Assembly (NCBI RefSeq): GCF_056746865.1
Contig: NZ_CM163382.1
Length of the DNA stretch: 64,000 bases
Reading direction: 5' to 3' (one strand)
Position 1 is the first letter of the stretch. Every line of letters starts with the position of its first letter. This document shows positions 18,003 to 49,132 of the stretch, piece by piece. The notes under the pieces are model-generated. The model was not told the origin of the DNA and ran no database searches. It saw only the letters and a list, made by a program, of their open reading frames with translations. The position numbers and the translations under genes are program-made.

Positions 18003-18078
18003 GGCCCCTTAGCTCAGTGGTTAGAGCAGGCGACTCATAATCGCTTGGTCGTTGGTTCAAACCCAACAGGGGCCACCA
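18003..18078 (+). tRNA. ileX: tRNA-Ile (anticodon CAU, ileX-like)
   Basis: 76 nt: 7-bp acceptor stem GGCCCCT/AGGGGCC, D-arm, anticodon loop CTCATAA, T-arm GTTGG-TTCAAAC-CCAAC, 3' CCA. Ile2 rather than Met assignment is from memory of ileX and from position after mug. Confidence 0.85.
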
Positions 18079-33581: not shown

Positions 33582-33731
33582 GGAAGGTGCGAATAAGCAG
33601 GTCATTTCTTCCCAAGCTGACTCGCTGATTAAAATTTCGCGGATCTGGGCCGATTTTTTTCCCGCAAACACATCGAATCGGCCTGTTTAGGCTATTTTTT
33701 CCACCATTTCTGGCGTTATTTCCGGTTTTTA

Positions 33732-36015
<2,284 letters not shown>

Positions 36016-36184
36016 TCAGGAACTTGTTCGCACCTTCCCTAAAAAAAGCAGATGATTTTCATTATTATCGCAGGATAATTGTGCGCATATTTTCCATGCG
36101 GATAAGAATACTTATTCATGGAAATAATAATTTCCAGGTCATCAAGTGAAATCTGTTAACGCAAAGAGTGTTCCACCCTGCCCC

Positions 36185-36715
36185 TCACACCATCTCAAGT
36201 TTTACCGCGTCATAACCACACTGAACCAAACATTCACCGCAACCATTACATATTGCAGCATCGATTACAGGCATTCCGCTTTCGTTGATTGAGCATGCCT
36301 GAAGTGGGCATAGATCGACACACTGTTTGCAACTGCGCACCGGATTAACACAATTTGCTTTAAAAACGGGACGCAATCCGGTGTCGAAACGAGCCTGCGG
36401 ACGTAATGCCTCAGTGGAACATGCAGCTATACATAAGCCGCAGCCGTCACAACTGGCAAATTCAATCACCAATTGCGGATAGCCATCTTCATGCCGGTTG
36501 AGAATGCCCATGGGACAGGCATTAATACACAAATCACACTGCGTGCACTGCACACGAAACTGCGCATCAGGTAACGCGCCGGGAGGTAAGGAGTGCACAG
36601 GTAATATCGGTGTTGTTACCGGGCGTGCCGCGCTGACAAAGGCCCGAAATAGCCCACGTCGGCTAACATACCGATGAGACATTAACTCCTGATAATAATT
36701 TTCTGACTTACTCAT
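36185..36715 (-). CDS. Ferredoxin-type protein with multiple 4Fe-4S motifs (NapF-like)
   Basis: Several CxxCxxCxxxCP motifs; start taken at MSKSENYYQ... whose ATG overlaps the upstream chaperone stop (ATGA). Confidence 0.65.
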   Translation of the reverse strand: MSKSENYYQELMSHRYVSRRGLFRAFVSAARPVTTPILPVHSLPPGALPDAQFRVQCTQCDLCINACPMGILNRHEDGYPQLVIEFASCDGCGLCIAACSTEALRPQARFDTGLRPVFKANCVNPVRSCKQCVDLCPLQACSINESGMPVIDAAICNGCGECLVQCGYDAVKLEMV

Positions 36716-37308
36716 CCAAGAAAGAGCCGTTTGGTTGGAGGATTTAGTGCCTGTTGCTGCTGATAATCCTGCAGAAACAGTGTCGCAATCTGCGCCAACT
36801 TCGCGTAAAACGCACTGACAGGGTTGCGCTGTAATAACTCCAGATAACGATATCCCCACGGCAGCAAATGCGTTTCCAGCAATTGATTCGCTGCGCGTTC
36901 TTTCCCCTCTGCCAGCAAGGCGCTACAGGCAAGCAGCATCAGGCCAAACTGATCTTCCGGTTCATTTATACAGGAATCAAACGTCATTCCCTGATCACGA
37001 AGGAACTTCCGGTACTCGGCAGTGCTGTCCCCCATCAACAGATTATCTTTTTCGAGATATACCGAACCCCAGGGTGGTGCTGGCATTTCACCCTGTCCTT
37101 CAAAAAGAACAGAAAATTGCCAGAGATGCTGCTCCTCATCCGGGATTGACCAGTCAGAGCATAATTCAGCCACCTGGCGGGGATCGCGCCAGGGGTATAT
37201 CTCATCCAATGTCGGCAGACAGTCAAACAGTGCCCGAACTTCAGGACGCGTGGGAGAATAGTAAAACAGGGCACCAAGAATACGCACCAGTACGGCTGGG
37301 GAAGGCAT
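36712..37308 (-). CDS. TorD/DmsD-family redox enzyme maturation chaperone
   Basis: About 199 aa from MPSPAVLVRILGALFYY...; position after the membrane anchor as in dms/ynf operons. Confidence 0.6.
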   Translation of the reverse strand: MPSPAVLVRILGALFYYSPTRPEVRALFDCLPTLDEIYPWRDPRQVAELCSDWSIPDEEQHLWQFSVLFEGQGEMPAPPWGSVYLEKDNLLMGDSTAEYRKFLRDQGMTFDSCINEPEDQFGLMLLACSALLAEGKERAANQLLETHLLPWGYRYLELLQRNPVSAFYAKLAQIATLFLQDYQQQQALNPPTKRLFLG

Positions 37309-37362
37309 GATTAAACACTCCTGAAAGCAGAGGTGGCCGGGCAAACACCGGCCACTCACAGG

Positions 37363-38139
37363 TTACATAGGGATGGTCCAGAGGTTGTAGAAACCGATCC
37401 GACCAACCAGTTCAGCAGCAATAACCACCAGTGCAGTCATCGCCAGCACAGCTTGCCCACTTTTCATGCGTGCATAGAGCAGTGCCCCAATAACACCCAG
37501 CGCCAACAGAATGGCCTGAGCGGTAAACCAGGTGGACTGCGCAGCGGTAATAACGCCATCAGCACTCATTAGCGTGGAAATATAACCCGGACGCAAACAG
37601 AAACTCGCCAGAATCGCCAGTACACTTACCAGCAGCCCCAGACGACGAACGCCAAACAACGCCGCCAACATGCCGCCACCGATAAGTGCAGTTAGCACCA
37701 TCATCATGGTGGTGTAAGAGGTACTCCAGGTCGCTACCGTTGCCAACTGGTAAATACGCGGGATGGCAAAGATAAACACGACTCCAATCGCAGCGGCCAG
37801 CCATACCAGTACTTTACAAAGCATTGCACCACCGCGATTTAACAGCAAACCGAGAGATCCCAGTCCTCCGGCTGCGGCAAAACATGCCGAAAGCACGATT
37901 TCGTTACTCATAGGAGAACTGCCGACACGGAATAGCATATTCAGCGCTCGCAGCGGCTGCCCGACATGAATGGTGCCAAGCACAACACCCACACCAAACA
38001 AGCACATCACCGAAAAGAGACCAATCGCCATACGACGTGGCTCAATTAATCCCATGGCACCGCCAATCAGCAGCAGAATAAACGCCCCCACTGCGCTCTG
38101 GGTAAATACGGTGAAAAAGACCAGTGGTAACTCATGCAT
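37363..38139 (-). CDS. DmsC-like membrane anchor subunit
   Basis: 258 aa, eight predicted hydrophobic segments; overlaps the B-subunit stop by 8 nt. Confidence 0.75.
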   Translation of the reverse strand: MHELPLVFFTVFTQSAVGAFILLLIGGAMGLIEPRRMAIGLFSVMCLFGVGVVLGTIHVGQPLRALNMLFRVGSSPMSNEIVLSACFAAAGGLGSLGLLLNRGGAMLCKVLVWLAAAIGVVFIFAIPRIYQLATVATWSTSYTTMMMVLTALIGGGMLAALFGVRRLGLLVSVLAILASFCLRPGYISTLMSADGVITAAQSTWFTAQAILLALGVIGALLYARMKSGQAVLAMTALVVIAAELVGRIGFYNLWTIPM

Positions 38140-38758
38140 GGCGCACCTCCCGAATGTTCATGATCGCCCCTTCTTTGTCGCCCGTAGGTCGCGCCAGCGG
38201 ATGCGGTTTAATTATCAGGTTAGGATGCGTAAACGAAGCGGCAGGTAACGGTGCGATTTCATTTTCACTGCCATATTTCGCCCGCAATTCGTCGATAGGA
38301 CCAAAATCCAAAGCTCGCTGTGGACAGGACTCAACACAAATAGGCGGGAGATTTTTCTCCAGTCGGTCAAGGCAACCATCACACTTACGCATCACTTTAG
38401 CTTGTGTATCAAACTGCGGTGCACCATAAGGGCAGCGCATTTCGCAGTAACGACAGCCCACACAAACACTGTCATCCACCAGCACCAGGCCATCTTCTTC
38501 GCGTTTGTGCATCGCGCCGGTTGGGCAACCTGCCACACAGGTCGGTTCATCGCAGTGATTGCAGGCAATCGACAAATAGTAAGTGAAGGTATTGTTGTGC
38601 CAGCTTTCACCTTCTTTCACCCAGCTACCGCCACCATATTCATACACGCGGCGCAGCTTCGGTCCGACATCCAAATCTTTATTATCCTTGCAGCTTACCT
38701 GGCAGGTTTTGCAGCCAGAGCAACGCGAGGAGTCAACGTAAAAACCATACTGTTTCAT
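38132..38758 (-). CDS. DmsB-like 4Fe-4S electron-transfer subunit
   Basis: 208 aa with four Cys-cluster motifs (CSGCKTCQVSC, CNHCDEPTCVAGCP, CVGCRYCEMRCP, CDGC...C). Confidence 0.85.
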   Translation of the reverse strand: MKQYGFYVDSSRCSGCKTCQVSCKDNKDLDVGPKLRRVYEYGGGSWVKEGESWHNNTFTYYLSIACNHCDEPTCVAGCPTGAMHKREEDGLVLVDDSVCVGCRYCEMRCPYGAPQFDTQAKVMRKCDGCLDRLEKNLPPICVESCPQRALDFGPIDELRAKYGSENEIAPLPAASFTHPNLIIKPHPLARPTGDKEGAIMNIREVRHA

Positions 38759-38771
38759 TGCGGATCACTCC

Positions 38772-41207
38772 CTAAGCGCGTTTGATTTCAACCAGGTTGG
38801 TATGTTGCGGGTTCCCTTTCGCCAGCGGCGACGGCAGGTGGCTGGTCAATGTGTTAATACATCCACCCACGTCCACACCGTTGCTGTCCAGTCGGGTCCA
38901 CGCGCCTTGCGGCATTGCCACCACGCCCGGCAGGATGCGCTGTGTCACCTTGCAGGGGATCTCCACCACACCGCGATCGTTGAATACATGGACCATATCG
39001 CCTGATTTCAACTGACGCACGCTGGCGTCTATCGGGTTGATCCAGACTTCATCCGGTACCGCTTCATGCAGCATCAGCACACTGGCATATGTTGAGTGCG
39101 TGTGACCTTTGGTGTGAAAACCGCTCATCTGTAGCGGATACTTTGCTGTCAGACTCTTGTTCAGATGGGACTCTGTCACTATACAAAATTCAGGAACAGC
39201 CGGAATGCGATCTCCTTCCGGTAGTGTCCAGGCTTTAGCCAGTTCCGCCAGAGTGTGCGAGTAAATCTCAATCTTCCCGGAAGGTGTCGTCAGTGGACTG
39301 GCAACCGGATCATGGCGGAAATCAGCAAGGATAATACTGTCCTCATCACGAGTACCTTGCTGATCGATAACCCCCATATTCATTGCAACTTCCCATTCAG
39401 GCAGATATGATCGCTTCTCTTTAACTTGTCCGTAATGCTTCGCCATCCACTCTGCCTGAGTACGCCCCTCAGTAAAACGCTCTCTTACCCCAAGATGCCC
39501 CGCAATATCTGCACAGATATCATAGGTACTGCGTACTTCCCACATCGGTGTGATCGTTTTTTGCATTGCAATCATGTAATGGTGAGAACCGGCTGCATAG
39601 GAACTGTCCACCAGATCCTCGGCTTCTAAGTAGCTAGTTTCTGGAAGAAGGATATCGGCAAAGCGGGCACTGGCAGTCATATGATTATCAATAACCACGA
39701 TAGTTTCGCACAGGCTGTCATCTTCAAGTATTTTGCGTGTACGATTGATATTTCCATGTTGATTCAGAAGTGCATTCCCGGCCTGGTTGAAGAACAGTTT
39801 AATACCGGTTTTCAGTTTATCCGCGCCTTTAACCCCCATAGTGGTGGCTGTCATTTTTTCCGGACTTTGAATCGCATCTGTCCACAGATAGCAGGGGATT
39901 GACACCTTAACGGGATTTTCACCAATCGGCAGAGCAGGAACACCATAAGGTGTTCCGTATGTCCAGTTCCCATTGTTGGTTCCTGGCAATCCAAAATGAC
40001 CCGTCAGGGCAGGAAGTATCTGAACCGCTCTGGAAGTCTGTTCACCATTTGCATGACGCTGTGGCCCCCATCCCTGGGCAATGAAACAGGCCCGAGCTTC
40101 GGCCATTTCACGTGCCAACTGGCGAATACGAATAGCCGGGATGCCACAGATATCTGCCGCCCATTCAGGTGTTTTTTCGACGCCGTCATCACCGTTACCC
40201 AGAACATAGTCTTTATAACTGGCATTTGGTTTCGCCGTTTCCGGAAGGGTGCTACGATCATAACCGACACAATAAGTATTGACTCGTTCTTCGTCGATCA
40301 GATTTTCTTTTATCAACGTGTGTGCAATAGCTGCTACCAGTGCAGCATCGGTTGTAGGGCGAATTGGTAACCATTCAGCATGTTCTGTAACAACAGAGTC
40401 TGTATAGCGCGGATCGATGATAATCACCCGGGCGCCTGATATTTCCAGCGCACGGCGCAGTTCTTCAACTTGCCCACCACCGGACATCCGAGTCTCAGAT
40501 AAATTCAGACCAAAAAAAACCACAAGATCAGAATGCGCAATCTGGCTAAAATGACTGGCAAACTGTACTCCTGTAGCACCATACGTGTAAGATGTGGCGG
40601 TAAAGTTTTGAGCGTTTGAGTAATTATTGTAATACTGCAGAAAACCGCCATTCAGGTTCAATAACCTTTTCCATGCGGGTGTTCCTTGGTTATGATAATA
40701 CGCGCCAGATTGATAATTAAAATAGATTGCTTCATTTCCATATTTTTCAGAAACGCGCTTTAATTCAGCGGCAATAAAGGCTGTGGCCTCATCCCATGAA
40801 ATACGTTTAAATTTCCCTTCTCCGCGTTTACCAACACGTTTCATCGGATATTTAATCCGGTCAGGGCTATAAACACGCCAGCGGCTGGAACGACCACGTA
40901 GGCAAGGTCGAATCTGATGTTCACCAAAAACAGAGTCGTCCTTCGCGTCCTCGGCTTCAATACGAACAATGCGTCCGTCTTTTACGATAACTTTTAATGG
41001 ACAACGACTTCCGCAATTCACCAGGCAAGCACTATGCCTGACGGTTTCAGCATTTTCGTTGGTTTTACCGGTATCCGATGTTTCGGCCCTGACGGTTGTG
41101 GAAAAAGGCAAAGTGATGGCGTTGCTTAGTGCAACGGCAGCTCCCAATTTTGCAGTTGTAGTCACCGCATCACGTCGGGAGATTGTTGTATTTAACAACT
41201 CTTTCAT
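38772..41207 (-). CDS. DMSO reductase-family molybdopterin oxidoreductase catalytic subunit (DmsA/YnfE-like)
   Basis: 811 aa; twin-arginine signal (TISRRDAVTT), N-terminal Cys cluster (HSACLVNCGSRCP), molybdopterin domains. Confidence 0.85.
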   Translation of the reverse strand: MKELLNTTISRRDAVTTTAKLGAAVALSNAITLPFSTTVRAETSDTGKTNENAETVRHSACLVNCGSRCPLKVIVKDGRIVRIEAEDAKDDSVFGEHQIRPCLRGRSSRWRVYSPDRIKYPMKRVGKRGEGKFKRISWDEATAFIAAELKRVSEKYGNEAIYFNYQSGAYYHNQGTPAWKRLLNLNGGFLQYYNNYSNAQNFTATSYTYGATGVQFASHFSQIAHSDLVVFFGLNLSETRMSGGGQVEELRRALEISGARVIIIDPRYTDSVVTEHAEWLPIRPTTDAALVAAIAHTLIKENLIDEERVNTYCVGYDRSTLPETAKPNASYKDYVLGNGDDGVEKTPEWAADICGIPAIRIRQLAREMAEARACFIAQGWGPQRHANGEQTSRAVQILPALTGHFGLPGTNNGNWTYGTPYGVPALPIGENPVKVSIPCYLWTDAIQSPEKMTATTMGVKGADKLKTGIKLFFNQAGNALLNQHGNINRTRKILEDDSLCETIVVIDNHMTASARFADILLPETSYLEAEDLVDSSYAAGSHHYMIAMQKTITPMWEVRSTYDICADIAGHLGVRERFTEGRTQAEWMAKHYGQVKEKRSYLPEWEVAMNMGVIDQQGTRDEDSIILADFRHDPVASPLTTPSGKIEIYSHTLAELAKAWTLPEGDRIPAVPEFCIVTESHLNKSLTAKYPLQMSGFHTKGHTHSTYASVLMLHEAVPDEVWINPIDASVRQLKSGDMVHVFNDRGVVEIPCKVTQRILPGVVAMPQGAWTRLDSNGVDVGGCINTLTSHLPSPLAKGNPQHTNLVEIKRA

Positions 41208-41287
41208 TTTATTTTCTCACATTGTTTTCATAATTATTATTAATACGACATATGAGGTAATCATAAAGAATTAGTAATTCATCATGA

Positions 41288-41301
41288 TTGATTATGATCA
41301 A
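41288..41301. promoter_or_regulatory. FNR-box (TTGAT-N4-ATCAA) upstream of the molybdoenzyme operon
   Basis: ttgattatgatcaa is a perfect match to the FNR consensus, centred about 87 bp upstream of the ATG at 41207; a second FNR/CRP-like site gtgatcattatcaa lies at 41337-41350. Confidence 0.5.
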
Positions 41302-41413
41302 GTGAGATTTGGTGCTTAGCACAAATATAAATATTTGTGATCATTATCAAAATGTAAATGATAACGCATCTTTATTATCATTTGAGATTAAATATCACGC
41401 AGCGTTAATCTAA

Positions 41414-43870
<2,457 letters not shown>

Positions 43871-44465
43871 CAAGAGAACGCAACAGCGCACTTGCTTTGC
43901 CACAGTTGAATTTTGTGCCGTAACGATGTGCAAGCATGTAAGCATAAGGAGTCAAGGTATAGCGTGTTACTTAGTTACTCGGATTAACAATCCCAACGTA
44001 CAGAGCGGCGGATTTAGAGAGTCAGCGCAGTCCCTGCTCCGGCAGTCAGTGGCAGGCGGCGTACTGAAGCAAACCATTATCGATACCGGCATCGGCGATA
44101 CCATCGGCATGCTGATGTCACACGGCAATATTTCTCCCTACATCATGGCGTGGTTGATAACCGTGCTGATCCGTCTGGCAACGGGTCAGGGCGTGGTCTC
44201 AGCCATGACGGCGGCGGGGATTATTAGCGCAGCAATCCTCGACCCGGCAACCGGTCAACTGGTGGGCGTCGACCCGGCGTTGCTGGTGCTGGCAACAGCG
44301 GCTGGCTCCAACACGCTGACCCATATCAACGATGCTTCGTTCTGGCTGTTCAAAGGCTACTTTGATCTGTCGGTGAAGGATACGCTGAAAACCTGGGGTC
44401 TGCTGGAGCTGGTAAACTCCGTGGTTGGCCTGATAATCGTGTTGATCATCAGCATGATTGCATAA
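43871..44465 (+). pseudogene. GntP-family permease, C-terminal fragment truncated by IS5
   Basis: The 303-aa track ORF starts inside IS5; only the distal ~198 codons look like a gluconate-type permease C-terminus. Confidence 0.6.
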
Positions 44466-44514
44466 CGTTGATACCGCTCTGGCGCACAGCGCCAGAGCGG
44501 TTTTCCATCCTGCC

Positions 44515-45210
44515 TCAACAATCCTCAATAATCAGATATACCGCCTTCACCGGACCATGCACCCCAACCACCTTGATAAGCTCAATATCCGCCGTCGAGC
44601 TGGGTCCACTGATGATATTAATGCACGATGGCATACGCTCACCGGCCTGTGCTTTCTGATGCAGTTTTTCTGCCAGCTGCGCCACGCGCGGCAGGATGGT
44701 GCTTTTACGCAGCACGAAAATAGAGGACTCCGGCAACAGGCTCAGGGAGCGCCCGCGCTCCGGTGCGGAAAACAGCACCACGCCGCCGGACTCGGTCAGG
44801 CCATATTCGGCATACACCACGCCGACTTTCGCCTGCTCGGCCTGGGTAATATTTTCGCTACCACGCGCCGGATCCCAGACCACGGCGTTGCATTCCTGCT
44901 GCAAGCGTTCGGTGATGCCCAGCTCCACCAGCCGGCTGTCGCCGCTCAGCACCACCGGCTGCTGACCCAATTCTTCGCACAGGCGCAGTGCCGCGTCTGC
45001 GGCCTGGTCCTCGCTGGTCAGTTCGCAGCGGGCCAGCATCACTTCGCTGGCAAACTGGATAAACGCAGAGCAGCGCTGCTCGGGGCTAAGCTCGGTCAGG
45101 CGCTCGTTGGCATAGTTGTTAACCGGTGCGGCATCCGCTTGCGGTTCGAAGCGCAGCGGGCGACCCAGCGCCTGGGCGATGGTGTTTAAAAACGCGGTAC
45201 GGTTATCCAT
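44515..45210 (-). CDS. ykgG: Lactate utilization protein C (LutC/YkgG family)
   Basis: 231 aa from MDNRTAFLNTIAQALG...; start overlaps ykgF stop. Confidence 0.85.
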   Translation of the reverse strand: MDNRTAFLNTIAQALGRPLRFEPQADAAPVNNYANERLTELSPEQRCSAFIQFASEVMLARCELTSEDQAADAALRLCEELGQQPVVLSGDSRLVELGITERLQQECNAVVWDPARGSENITQAEQAKVGVVYAEYGLTESGGVVLFSAPERGRSLSLLPESSIFVLRKSTILPRVAQLAEKLHQKAQAGERMPSCINIISGPSSTADIELIKVVGVHGPVKAVYLIIEDC

Positions 45211-46630
45211 TCTTTTTCTCCTGCGCCTGATGTTTCTTAAACCAGCTGCGGAAGCTCTCGCCGTCAGCATCAGGCAGATCGCGCGCCTCCATCCAGTCAC
45301 CAATCGCGCCAACCTTGAGCGGGGTTTTGCCGCCATTGATAAACCAGCTCGCCGCATGCGCGCCCGCCATCATCCCGACTTTCCACAGCCCCGGATGGCT
45401 ATTGGCATAGGCGAACATCTTGATCGCCCGTCGCTCGGCTTTCGGCGTAATGCCCTCCTCGGCCATCACCCGGCGATGACGCAGGATCAGTTTTGACAAC
45501 GGAATACGCACCGGGCAGACGCTGTCACAAGCCGTGCACAAAGAACAGGCGTACGGCAGGTCTTTAAAATCTTTATAGCCGCCGAGCAGCGGAGAAATCA
45601 CCGCGCCGATAGGGCCGGGATAGATAGAGCCATAGCCGTGCCCGCCGATGTGGCGGTACGCCGGACAGGTGTTCATACAGGCTCCGCAGCGGATGCAGCG
45701 CAGCACATCGCGAAACTCTGAGCCCAGCACCTGCGAGCGACCGTTATCGACAATCACCAGATGGAACTCTTCCGGTCCGTCAACGTTGTCCGCATCACGC
45801 GGGCCGGTCAGCCAGGTGTTGTAGCCCGTCAGACGTGCGCCCACGGCGCTGCGCGCCAGCATGGTAATCAGCACATCCACCTCGGCAAAGGTCGGCGCGA
45901 TACGCTCCATGCCCATCACCGCAATGTGCGTTTTCGGTAGCGTGGTGCACATGCGCGCGTTGCCTTCGTTGGTCACCAGACACACCGAGCCGGTTTCCGC
46001 CACGGCAAAGTTACAGCCAGTAATACCGATTTCGGCACTGAGGAAATCCTCGCGGATCTTCTGACGAATGAACAAGGTCATAGCTTCCGGGGTTTCCGGG
46101 CCGTCGTACCCCAGACGTTCGTTCAGCACGCGGCGGATCTGGTAGCGATCTTTATGAATCGCCGGAACCACGACGTGCGAAGGCGGATCCTGATCCAACT
46201 GCAGGATATATTCCCCGAGATCGGTTTCGATCACCTGGATTCCGGCATCCTGCAACACATGGTTGACGCCGATTTCTTCGGTCACCATCGACTTGGACTT
46301 CACCACCTTCTGCGCATTTTTACTCTGCGCGACCTGCAAAATGTAGCGAGTGGCATCTTCTTTGGTTTTGGCGAAATAGACGTGTCCGCCGTTTTCCGTC
46401 ACTTTCTCGGAGAGTTGGTACAGGTAAGCGTCGAGGTTGCTCAGAACGTGATCGCGGATCTGGCTGGCACGATCGCGCCATTCTTCCCAGTGGCCTAACT
46501 CATCGACCATTTTTTGCCGATTCGCGCCGATACGCTCCTGCGCATTAGCCACGGCTTTGCGCATAATCGGATCTTCTATCTGCTGACGAATACGCAGTTT
46601 AAATTCTACATCGCTGGTTTTTATCGACAT
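45203..46630 (-). CDS. ykgF: Lactate utilization protein B, iron-sulfur (LutB/YkgF family)
   Basis: 475 aa; two 4Fe-4S motifs (CIRCGACMNTCP, CSLCTACDSVCP). Confidence 0.9.
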   Translation of the reverse strand: MSIKTSDVEFKLRIRQQIEDPIMRKAVANAQERIGANRQKMVDELGHWEEWRDRASQIRDHVLSNLDAYLYQLSEKVTENGGHVYFAKTKEDATRYILQVAQSKNAQKVVKSKSMVTEEIGVNHVLQDAGIQVIETDLGEYILQLDQDPPSHVVVPAIHKDRYQIRRVLNERLGYDGPETPEAMTLFIRQKIREDFLSAEIGITGCNFAVAETGSVCLVTNEGNARMCTTLPKTHIAVMGMERIAPTFAEVDVLITMLARSAVGARLTGYNTWLTGPRDADNVDGPEEFHLVIVDNGRSQVLGSEFRDVLRCIRCGACMNTCPAYRHIGGHGYGSIYPGPIGAVISPLLGGYKDFKDLPYACSLCTACDSVCPVRIPLSKLILRHRRVMAEEGITPKAERRAIKMFAYANSHPGLWKVGMMAGAHAASWFINGGKTPLKVGAIGDWMEARDLPDADGESFRSWFKKHQAQEKKNG

Positions 46631-46640
46631 CTCTTTCCCC

Positions 46641-47360
46641 TCAGCGGCTCATCAGCACTTCAGCAATATGCATCACTTTGACCGGCTGGCCTTCCCGTTG
46701 CAGTCGACCGCCAATGTTCAGCAGGCAGCTAACGTCTGCGCCAATCAAAAATTCCGGCTTTGCGTCCATCAGATGTAATACTTTCTCTTTCACCATCTCA
46801 CCGGATATCTCGGCCATCTTGACCGAGAACGTCCCGCCAAAGCCGCAACAGGTATCCTGATCGGCAAACGTCAACAGCTCCAGTCCGCGCACGTTTTTCA
46901 GCAGCGTAAGCGGCTCTTCCTTCACTCCCAGTTTGCGGGTCAGGCTACAGGAAGGATGATACACAGCGCGGCCCTGCAGGCTGGCACCAACGTCCACCAC
47001 ACCCAGTTTGTTGACGATAAAGGAGGTGAGATCCTGCATACGCGCGGAAACTTTCTCAGCACGCAGCGCCCATTCCGGTTCATCGGCCAGATACGTCGGG
47101 TAGCTTTTAACCGCGTAGGTGCAGGAGCCCGCCGGGGAGATAATCGGATCGTCGTTGTCTTCCAGCGCGGCGATCAGGTTTTTCATCCCGGGGATCGCCT
47201 CTTTGATGTAACCGCTGTTGATGGCTGGCTGACCGCAACACCCTTGCTTCTCGGGGAAATTAACGCGACAACCCAGTTTTTCCAGCAGCAATACGGAGTC
47301 TCGTGCCATCCGTGATTTCAGTGCGTCACCAATACAGGTGACAAAGAAATTTACATTCAC
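46641..47360 (-). CDS. ykgE: Lactate utilization protein A (LutA/YkgE family, CCG domain)
   Basis: 239 aa; cysteine-rich CCG motifs. Confidence 0.9.
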   Translation of the reverse strand: MNVNFFVTCIGDALKSRMARDSVLLLEKLGCRVNFPEKQGCCGQPAINSGYIKEAIPGMKNLIAALEDNDDPIISPAGSCTYAVKSYPTYLADEPEWALRAEKVSARMQDLTSFIVNKLGVVDVGASLQGRAVYHPSCSLTRKLGVKEEPLTLLKNVRGLELLTFADQDTCCGFGGTFSVKMAEISGEMVKEKVLHLMDAKPEFLIGADVSCLLNIGGRLQREGQPVKVMHIAEVLMSR

Positions 47361-47434
47361 AATAACTACTCCATTGCTTCATTTCTGTTTATTGCGCTTG
47401 ATATCGCGATATCAAACAAATGTTCATTCGTATT

Positions 47435-49132
47435 TCATGCCCAGTTTTTATGTTTGCTGGTTTTACCAATACCTGGATTCATAGTGTTGGTCGGATCATT
47501 TTCCTGATAAAAACGTGCCAAATTTTCCGGCGCTTTATACAGATGGCCGACATTGTGTTCCGCCGGATATTGCGCTCCGCGTTGGCGCAGTAATTCCAGC
47601 ATCTGTTCTTTTAACGCGTGGGCATCTACGCCTTTTTTAACGATATAATCCTGATGGAATACATGGCACATAAAATGGCCGTAATAGAGTTTATGCACCA
47701 ACTGACTGTCAATTTCCGCAGGTAAATACTCATACCATTCGGTATCATTGCGGCGTAATGCAATATCCAGCGCGAGAATATCCTCAACCTCGTCAGAATG
47801 AACGGCCTGATAACGAATGGCAGCACCCGCGGCGGCAAAACGATGCAGAAACGCCTTACTGCCCTCTTCCGCGGTACAGGTAAAGAACGCGCCCTCGGCC
47901 GATTTAAAATAGTCCGTTAACCATGCCTGGGCTTCGGCCACACCCTCGCCGGACATTTTCAACATCAGATGGTGTTCATAGTTATCGCGCCAGGTCTTCA
48001 TCCGCGCCGGGAGATGGCTCGGGAACAGATGGCTAAAAGCCTGCATCGCGCGGTCAGTAAAGTGCGGGCGAAAGATCTTCACCTTCTCAAGTATGGCCTC
48101 GGTACGCCCCTTCAGGTTGAAGAAGAACGGCATTTTGTCCGTGCCAAGTTTGTCGATCATCAGGAAGGTATCTTTGCTGTATTTCTCTGCAATATCATAG
48201 ATATCGCGGTGCATATACTCCCCAGCAACCGGCAGGTTTGTAAAATTCGCCAGGATGTGGCGGCGAATCTCAGTCAGGACATCAGTCTGATTGGTACCGA
48301 TATAAAAGACCTGCTGGTTCTTCTCGGCTTCAAAGGTATCCAGACGTACGGCAAACACCGCTAACTTGCCCGCGCAGCCAGAGGATTCAAACAGGCGATC
48401 CGGGTCAGCGTTGTAACGTGCTGGCGTGTCGGCATTGATGTCCCGCACGCGGCTAACATAGTCGTGATCGTGCGCGTGACGTCCGTCATGGTTGACGAGC
48501 GCGGCTTCAATCACATTGTTATCCAGCCGGGCAAGGATTTGCTCTGGCGTCTGACCTAGCTCAATGCCAAGGTGATTGACCAGCTGCAAGCGTCCCTGTT
48601 CATCAATGCGGGCAAACAGCGACATCTCGGTGTAAGCCGGGCCTCGCTGGACCAGAGAACCGCCCGAGTTATTACAGATACCGCCGATAACCGACGCGCC
48701 GATGCACGAAGAGCCGATCACCGAATGCGGCTCACGGCCAAACGGCTTCAGCGCCCTTTCCAGCGAGTACAGCGTGGTGCCCGGATAAGCCAGCACCTGC
48801 TTGCCCTCATCCAGCACATGCAGACTGTCCAGCCGCAGCGTGCTGATAATGACGATCTCGCGGTCGTAGTCATTACCATTTGGCGTCGAACCCTCGGCCA
48901 GGCCTGTGTTCGACGCCTGCATCAGGATTATTTTATCAGCCTCAACGCAGGCGCTGAGGACTTTCCAGAGTTCAAGCAAAGAGCCGGGGATAACCACCGC
49001 CAGAGCATCACCCTGACCCGAGCGGAATCCCTTACGGTAACGCGCAGTTTTTGACGGTTCGGTGAGGATATGAGCAGGGCCAACCAATTGGGTAAGAGTC
49101 GTCAAAAAGGTCTTATTATCAGTATGTTTCAT
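47435..49132 (-). CDS. FAD-dependent quinone-linked D-lactate dehydrogenase (Dld-like)
   Basis: 565 aa; FAD-binding region (IGSSCIGASVIGGICNNSGGS); collinear with remembered E. coli Dld. Confidence 0.85.
   Translation of the reverse strand: MKHTDNKTFLTTLTQLVGPAHILTEPSKTARYRKGFRSGQGDALAVVIPGSLLELWKVLSACVEADKIILMQASNTGLAEGSTPNGNDYDREIVIISTLRLDSLHVLDEGKQVLAYPGTTLYSLERALKPFGREPHSVIGSSCIGASVIGGICNNSGGSLVQRGPAYTEMSLFARIDEQGRLQLVNHLGIELGQTPEQILARLDNNVIEAALVNHDGRHAHDHDYVSRVRDINADTPARYNADPDRLFESSGCAGKLAVFAVRLDTFEAEKNQQVFYIGTNQTDVLTEIRRHILANFTNLPVAGEYMHRDIYDIAEKYSKDTFLMIDKLGTDKMPFFFNLKGRTEAILEKVKIFRPHFTDRAMQAFSHLFPSHLPARMKTWRDNYEHHLMLKMSGEGVAEAQAWLTDYFKSAEGAFFTCTAEEGSKAFLHRFAAAGAAIRYQAVHSDEVEDILALDIALRRNDTEWYEYLPAEIDSQLVHKLYYGHFMCHVFHQDYIVKKGVDAHALKEQMLELLRQRGAQYPAEHNVGHLYKAPENLARFYQENDPTNTMNPGIGKTSKHKNWA

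Follow-up and report, generated by a model that had tools for sequence, protein, structure and literature searches.

A truncated Citrobacter-type gntP gene in an Escherichia coli genomic island: a Gp2–gntP recombination junction that probably predates the neighbouring ISKpn26

The window analysed here is a stretch of 64,000 nucleotides (contig NZ_CM163382.1, RefSeq assembly GCF_056746865.1) that contains a 5'-truncated gluconate permease gene, gntP', close to an insertion sequence (IS) of the IS5 family. Very probably, the region around gntP' is a scar of three parts, left in a mosaic genomic island by a history of three steps, and the gene was not cut by the IS. The features are as follows, with strand as plus or minus.

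33582–36038, minus: ISKpn26 (IS5 family) copy 1 with nested ISEc31, 2457 bp, delimited by inverted repeat search and self-BLAST
41414–43870, minus: ISKpn26 copy 2 with nested ISEc31, 2457 bp, its right inverted repeat abutting 43871
42348–43605, minus: ISEc31 (IS3 family), 1258 bp, interrupting the transposase gene of ISKpn26 and flanked by a 3-bp duplication, ATG
43554–44465, plus: long open frame of 303 codons, from GTG at 43554 inside ISEc31 to the stop at 44463–44465
43871–43951, no strand: stretch of 81 bp, probably intergenic
43926–44465, plus: chimeric ATG open reading frame (ORF) of 179 codons (P0001, 179 aa), reported by automatic gene callers
43952–44063, plus: degenerate 3' remnant of a Gp2/YagK-YfjJ gene, about 38 codons with two in-frame stops
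44052–44465, plus: gntP' pseudogene, the last 137 codons and stop of a Citrobacter-type GntP (residues 311–447 of 447)
44055–44063, no strand: crossover microhomology GGCGGCGTA, 9 bp, common to the Gp2-type gene and Citrobacter gntP
44474–44500, between the convergent gntP' and lutC stops: GC-rich hairpin CCGCTCTGGCGC-ACA-GCGCCAGAGCGG, followed by TTTTCC
44515–45210, minus: lutC/ykgG, first gene of the lactate module lutCBA-dld-lldP, which extends to about 51117

The translation of 43872–44462 matched PF02447 (GntP_permease; E = 9.7e-48) over profile positions 309–440 of 440, and the match was confined to residues 60–196 of the 197-aa translation, which correspond to 44052–44465 of the window. 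The gntP' translation also matched the NCBIfam model NF007459 ('gluconate permease GntP'; E = 4.5e-81) over positions 311–446 of 447, scoring 273 bits against an equivalog cutoff of 647 bits and thus falling short of full-length membership, whereas the intact Citrobacter gene (447 aa, C. portucalensis, locus L010) scored 896 bits. In BLAST comparisons with 18 loci that have an intact gntP of Citrobacter or Escherichia, the DNA homology started at 44052 every time. Because the GntP family models cover only residues 60–196, the permease part is 44052–44465, that is, 137 codons and a stop, and the approximately 198 permease codons of the preliminary description are too many; the positions given there for the end of the IS (43870) and the end of the GntP fragment (44465) hold. 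What is left amounts to 31% of gntP, and the start codon, the promoter and the N-terminal 310 residues are absent from gntP'. The Citrobacter and Escherichia orthologues all lie in open frames of at least 450 codons, the close orthologues being 447 aa long; the intact gene emerged from a search of genome contigs, and a protein search with the 138-aa fragment gave short fragments only. The gene is, as first described, a 5'-truncated member of the GntP family and not a naturally short one.

The same 414 bp are already annotated in RefSeq by PGAP as 'gluconate permease; incomplete; missing N-terminus', a partial pseudogene, for example as D0R13_RS14645 (NZ_CP031833.1), A9C00_RS24160 (NZ_CP015912.1) and HZR83_RS00320 (NZ_CP058661.1), and gntP' is a known kind of object, a remnant at the border of captured DNA. 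Most of these genomes share with the window the 414 bp, the spacer and the ISKpn26 junction at 99.8–100% identity; the window differs in that the adjacent ISKpn26 carries ISEc31 and occurs in duplicate around a dms-type operon. The PGAP annotation records neither the Gp2 remnant nor the cause of the truncation. gntP' contains no disabling mutation. Judged from its sequence, it is probably a non-functional passenger pseudogene that is kept beside lutC and presumably not expressed, and a fragment representing roughly the last third of the protein would be expected to be unable on its own to transport gluconate or another sugar acid.

Between the end of ISKpn26 at 43870 and gntP' lie 181 bp (43871–44051), or 193 bp when counted to 44063, of non-GntP DNA. 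The first 81 bp showed no Gp2 or GntP similarity in any of the six frames, and no match to them was found in E. coli genomes and plasmids outside the present junction. In three IS-free contigs (L090, L093 and L094, considered below), these 81 bp are continuous on their left with the 3' flank (55 bp) of a GTPase gene (418 aa, MMR_HSR1). The remainder, read in the frame of 43871 and not in the GntP frame, is the Gp2 remnant. An HMM built from 118 Gp2 homologues matched 43952–44065 with E = 2e-10 at model positions 152–189 of 191, and no other frame or strand of the spacer matched it. The homologues in this set were named inovirus-type Gp2, YagK/YfjJ or rolling-circle replication-associated (Pfam PF23343/PF11726), and the 3' third of the spacer also matched genes annotated 'inovirus-type Gp2 protein'. 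At the nucleotide level, 43986–44063 was 94% identical over 78 bp to an intact Gp2-type gene of strain 23AR0998 (L003:3514–4089); the match stops 26 bp before the gene end, 8 codons short of the stop codon, and the last 8 codons and stop of Gp2 (L003 4064–4089) are replaced by gntP'. The remnant has the similarity of a Gp2 family member but not the intact frame of about 190 aa. Pfam and NCBIfam searches with the stop-masked translation of the spacer gave no match, and the intact Gp2 protein itself scored below the cutoff for PF23343 (24.9 versus 27.8 bits) and matched no NCBIfam family. Of 5426 complete E. coli genomes, 86 have the 181-bp spacer, and in each of them it lies in the present context.

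The break was located by aligning the window with the intact Gp2 gene, with core E. coli gntP and with three gntP genes of Citrobacter. The window tracks the Gp2 gene to ...GGCAGGCGGCGTA and gntP from GGCGGCGTACTGAAG... onward, and GGCGGCGTA lies at the aligned crossover both in the Gp2 genes (L003 and L090) and in Citrobacter gntP (L005, L010, L014 and L015). With one mismatch allowed, the microhomology lengthens to 12 bp (44052–44063). Where the two parent genes are joined at random, identity of at least 9 bp occurs with a frequency of 5e-5. The A at 44054 is that of the Gp2 parent and of E. coli gntP and not that of the sampled Citrobacter genes, and the crossover can thus be placed only within 44052–44063. 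Both unrecombined parents were recovered, L090 for the left side and intact Citrobacter gntP for the right. The 9-bp microhomology is a signature of illegitimate, microhomology-mediated recombination and not of transposition. Junctions of this kind at the borders of captured DNA in genomic islands reflect a general mechanism, and with 9-bp identity at the crossover and both parents at hand, the present one has nothing unusual about it.

The elements to the left were named from the PGAP annotation of related RefSeq genomes ('IS5-like element ISKpn26 family' and 'IS3-like element ISEc31 family'). The right inverted repeat of ISKpn26 copy 2, CTTGTTCGCACCTTCC, ends at 43870. The bounds of ISEc31 were set where copy 2 ceases to be collinear with the uninterrupted 1196-bp ISKpn26 of E. 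coli 2452 (L001). Transposase fragments of copy 2 matched DDE_Tnp_1 and DUF772, and ISEc31 has rve and HTH domains. Copy 1 has the same nested structure as copy 2, with seven differences that all lie in the ISKpn26 part and none in ISEc31. The two copies form a direct repeat around a dms/ynf-type DMSO-reductase operon (33582–43870). Insertion of IS5-family elements generates a 4-bp duplication at YTAR targets. The ISKpn26 flanks are TTAG/CTAA at copy 1 and CTAA/CAAG at copy 2, so that both inner flanks are CTAA; at the single IS in L001 and in E. coli 005008 (L095), they are TTAG/CAAG. A 4-bp target-site duplication is therefore absent at each ISKpn26 copy, at the outer pair and at the single IS in L001 and L095, suggesting that ISKpn26 took part in some rearrangement. 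The left flank of copy 1 is the 3' end of hsdR (...GATTTAG).

Genomes with a single ISKpn26 bear on the age of the truncation. E. coli 005008 carries one 1196-bp ISKpn26 flanked by ...GGAAAGATTTAG (the hsdR end) and CAAGAGAACGC..., and these flanks are identical to the outer flanks of the two-copy unit in the window, indicating that the truncation is older than the two-copy IS/dms unit. E. coli 2452 also has a single ISKpn26; it is bordered on the left by a porin gene, and its right junction is that of the window. Both of these inspected genomes lack the dms segment beside ISKpn26. Recombination within the IS may thus have added or removed the dms segment and the second IS copy while the gntP' side stayed untouched; the pattern agrees with an 'IS + cargo' unit that was gained or lost through such recombination in a resident IS. 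Other E. coli genomes carry the IS-dms-IS unit as well, with different flanking DNA.

Metagenome contigs were scanned by exact match with 32 bp of the 43871–43951 stretch, and five contigs were found, among them the IS-free OKVW01000218.1, OQDA01001800 and ERZ773225 NODE-2737. In L090, the 193 bp comprising the 81-bp stretch and the Gp2 remnant stand 3' of the GTPase gene and continue into the normal 3' end of Gp2 and the DNA downstream of it, AGCGGAGCTGA...; this contig has neither gntP' nor an IS. L093 and L094 have the same GTPase-side upstream DNA as L090, followed by the identical Gp2'–gntP' fusion and lutCBA, again with no IS. In L091, in L092 and in the E. coli genomes, ISKpn26 is located precisely at 43870/43871. 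Since the IS-free L093 and L094 already carry the fusion, the truncation is older than ISKpn26. As a separate observation, L090 (2585–3382 and 8415–8608) has both a full-length Gp2-type gene (about 70% identity to that of L003) and the degenerate remnant, with a gene for a TnsA-like/ResIII protein of 908 aa nearby, which suggests tandem or nested island modules.

These three states bear directly on the cause of the truncation. The preliminary description attributed the loss of the 5' part to the IS5 insertion or to the recombination that brought in the composite unit. An ISKpn26 insertion, or recombination of the two-copy IS/dms unit, into an intact permease gene, with the 5' part lost across the IS, would be in keeping with an IS end only 181 bp from the breakpoint, with a frame that is open from the IS region into gntP', and with the missing target-site duplication, by which the IS must have joined in some rearrangement. 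However, 181–193 bp with Gp2-family homology separate the IS from the breakpoint, the breakpoint coincides with the Gp2 microhomology and with no IS end, and the single-IS genomes inspected (L001 and L095), which lack the dms unit, share the identical junction. The same truncation in the IS-free L093 and L094 refutes an origin by the IS, and we regard both routes as very improbable. Compared with gene disruption by an IS5-family element as usually seen, the locus is alike in having such an element adjoining a broken gene, but the IS end does not abut the gene, there is no 4-bp duplication, and the IS-free alleles are already broken.

IS elements can also mobilise adjacent DNA, and the missing target duplication would be compatible with ISKpn26 having carried the 193-bp stretch along by aberrant or one-ended transposition before inserting into gntP. 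In the IS-free L093 and L094, however, the 193 bp are joined leftwards to the GTPase flank exactly as in L090, which has no gntP', and none of the three contigs has an IS; the 193 bp were thus in place before any IS. In addition, the joint with gntP lies at the Gp2/gntP microhomology and shows no IS-like end, and the searches met the 193 bp in the present context only. Carriage of the stretch by the IS is accordingly a highly unlikely origin, and recombination between the Gp2-type gene and gntP before the arrival of ISKpn26 remains the preferred explanation.

The frame of gntP' is open far beyond the permease part, and the preliminary description placed its start inside IS5. The frame is indeed open from the IS region, but its start lies in the nested ISEc31 and not in the IS5-like part. 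Gene callers give products of 175–208 aa at this place, with many database members, and an identical 179-codon ORF is present in the metagenome contig L093. Together with the open frame and a GntP part that differs from that of Citrobacter sp. wls619 in two synonymous codons and nothing disabling, this might suggest that the ORF from ATG 43926, or a longer form of it, is a functional gene in its own right, with its own start and a membrane protein product that is short by nature. Several results speak against this. The first 42 codons of the 43926 ORF come from intergenic DNA and the Gp2 remnant, read out of frame. The orthologues are all 447 aa long. ATG 43926 is the sole in-frame ATG of a called ORF, no Shine–Dalgarno-like sequence was found upstream of it, and the in-frame starts upstream of 44052 all lie in Gp2-remnant, intergenic or IS DNA. 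A promoter and terminator scan of 43400–44700 detected nothing promoter-like, and its only terminator-like site, at chance level, lay inside gntP'. The score of 273 bits against the cutoff of 647 and the pseudogene call by PGAP point the same way, and the nonsynonymous changes in other E. coli alleles (two in L095 and one in L088) do not argue for constraint. The synonymous-only differences and the intact frame go back to selection that acted in the Citrobacter donor lineage. A short functional protein is thus a reading to which we give very little credence, and the long open frame and the 175–208-aa 'proteins' of annotation pipelines are chimeric artefacts. The hairpin at 44474–44500 failed the T-run rule of the terminator scan; from its position between the convergent stops, it was probably the original bidirectional terminator shared by gntP and lutC.

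The DNA to the right of the junction is of Citrobacter type. The 414 nt of gntP' were 99.5% identical to those of Citrobacter sp. wls619 (two differences, both synonymous) and 98.1% identical to those of C. portucalensis A60, compared to 84% for core E. coli gntP, and the segment from gntP' through lutCBA (44052–47505) was 97.1% identical to C. portucalensis. The gntP' protein was 100% identical to GntP of C. werkmanii, C. youngae, C. portucalensis and C. braakii, with one genome scanned per species. It shares with the GntP of the C. freundii complex and E. coli residues 311–447 and, as in Citrobacter chromosomes, a position convergent to lutC, but it lacks their start and N-terminal 310 residues and falls below the equivalog cutoff. 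In C. portucalensis L010, the intact 447-aa gntP lies between a 394-aa ORF, which from its position and size is probably uxuA, and lutC. The intact locus that the preliminary description suggested seeking in related strains was found in Citrobacter; no intact Citrobacter-type gntP was found among complete E. coli genomes.

At the protein level, gntP' is also 98.6% (about 99%) identical to E. coli GntP over 137 residues, as would be expected if it were a remnant of the native gntP locus of E. coli. The nucleotide identities (84% to core gntP versus 98–99.5% to Citrobacter) are against such an origin. Furthermore, core gntP sits between uxuA and fimH, E. coli genomes with gntP' show a second matching place, the neighbouring lutCBA-lldP genes follow the Citrobacter synteny, and the locus is in an island beside a tRNA gene. 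A native origin is therefore extremely improbable; the nucleotide identities, the synteny and the island location together indicate that gntP' is acquired island DNA. The preliminary description had taken this side for the original chromosomal side of the junction, which does not agree with Citrobacter-type DNA inside a mosaic island.

In E. coli 2452, the locus is in a mosaic island at tRNA-Ser/ghrA with CP4-like backbone genes, hsdMSR, IS remnants, a group II intron and sucrose genes. In the window, the CP4-like backbone is beside a tRNA gene with the anticodon CAT (18003–18078; tRNA-Met by ARAGORN). The different tRNA genes suggest related islands at different tRNA sites, or tandem islands. 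At and around 52116–53639, the window has a group II intron reverse transcriptase/maturase and IS3 and IS1414 remnants, followed by a sucrose (scr-like) porin/kinase/hydrolase cluster; this intron-sucrose region is further cargo of the mosaic island and is 99.95% identical to E. coli 2452. The lactate module has its own peculiarity. In the window and in the plasmid module described below, dld (47435–49132) lies between lutA and lldP, where it is absent from most of the Citrobacter loci compared (L005–L010, L014, L015 and L021) and present in Citrobacter sp. Res13 (L013), suggesting that the exact donor arrangement is not among the sampled Citrobacter type genomes.

A second truncation variant (variant B) was also observed. 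In variant B, the Citrobacter-type gntP' starts at the equivalent of position 44084 of the window, 32 bp further in, and has higBA upstream. It was found in 32 records, mostly plasmids and some chromosomes, for example E. coli H15 plasmid A (L088:5930–6382) and the chromosome of S1-INA-02-B (L089). Just left of its junction is a 9-bp inverted repeat, GCCGGTAAC...GTTACCGGC, the right arm of which runs into gntP'. Strain 005008 (L095) has the junction of the window (junction A) together with a module allele 99.2% like that of variant B, and junction type and allele are thus uncoupled. As the junction of variant B lies 21–32 bp further into gntP, this end of gntP could be a recurrent boundary of a mobile lactate module and no coincidence.

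A lactate-utilisation cluster (LctP, Dld and YkgEFG) has been described on the P1-derived IncY plasmid pFec10 and its relatives (PMC7984374), where a gntP remnant is not mentioned. The plasmids found in our searches are probably pFec10-like, given their gene content (ars genes and the lactate cluster). The gntP'-lutCBA-dld-lldP module of plasmid H15-A is 97.8% identical over 6.4 kb to that of the window, but its left junction differs, with gntP' starting at the 44084 equivalent and higBA in place of the Gp2 remnant and ISKpn26. In the literature, we found the plasmid lactate cluster only and no description of the Gp2'–gntP' junction.

Considering these results, we propose the following scenario for the region. 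In the first step, a CP4-like integrative island carrying a Gp2/YagK-YfjJ-type gene that was already degenerate would have recombined illegitimately, through the 3' end of that gene, with gntP of the C. freundii complex, convergent to lutCBA. The crossover at GGCGGCGTA would have broken gntP at codon 311 and fused the island backbone to a gntP'-lutCBA-(dld)-lldP lactate-utilisation segment. The parents and the junction are observed, and from them this recombination appears to be how the island captured the lactate segment. Capture by deletion in situ in Citrobacter may have been involved; no Citrobacter genome with the island adjoining gntP was found. In the second step, ISKpn26 would later have come to lie in the intergenic DNA 181 bp upstream of the breakpoint, joining the segment to the hsdR end of the island. 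The IS-free and IS-bearing states and the missing duplication point to an IS-mediated rearrangement on the left side. In the third step, in the lineage of the strain, ISEc31 would have inserted into ISKpn26, and the dms-type reductase segment with the second IS copy would have come in by within-IS recombination that left the outer junctions unchanged; the direction of this step, entry of the dms unit, is suggested by the identity of the flanks with those of a single-IS genome.

The finding that gntP' does not owe its truncation to the IS next to it corrects an inference made at the level of annotation and matters little in itself. The reconstruction of three states, namely the parent, the fusion and the fusion with the IS, documents an island backbone fused to Citrobacter chromosomal DNA. 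Only tentatively do we suggest that the Gp2'–gntP' joint is the capture scar by which a CP4-like island took up the Citrobacter lutCBA-dld-lldP segment, which then spread to E. coli chromosomes and P1-like plasmids. The stretch 43700–44465, made up of the spacer, gntP' and 171 bp of IS sequence, was matched in 86 of 5426 complete E. coli genomes at a threshold of at least 80% coverage. The results identify the C. freundii complex as the source of the lactate-utilisation module, which is now present on plasmids and in no fewer than 86 complete chromosomes of E. coli.
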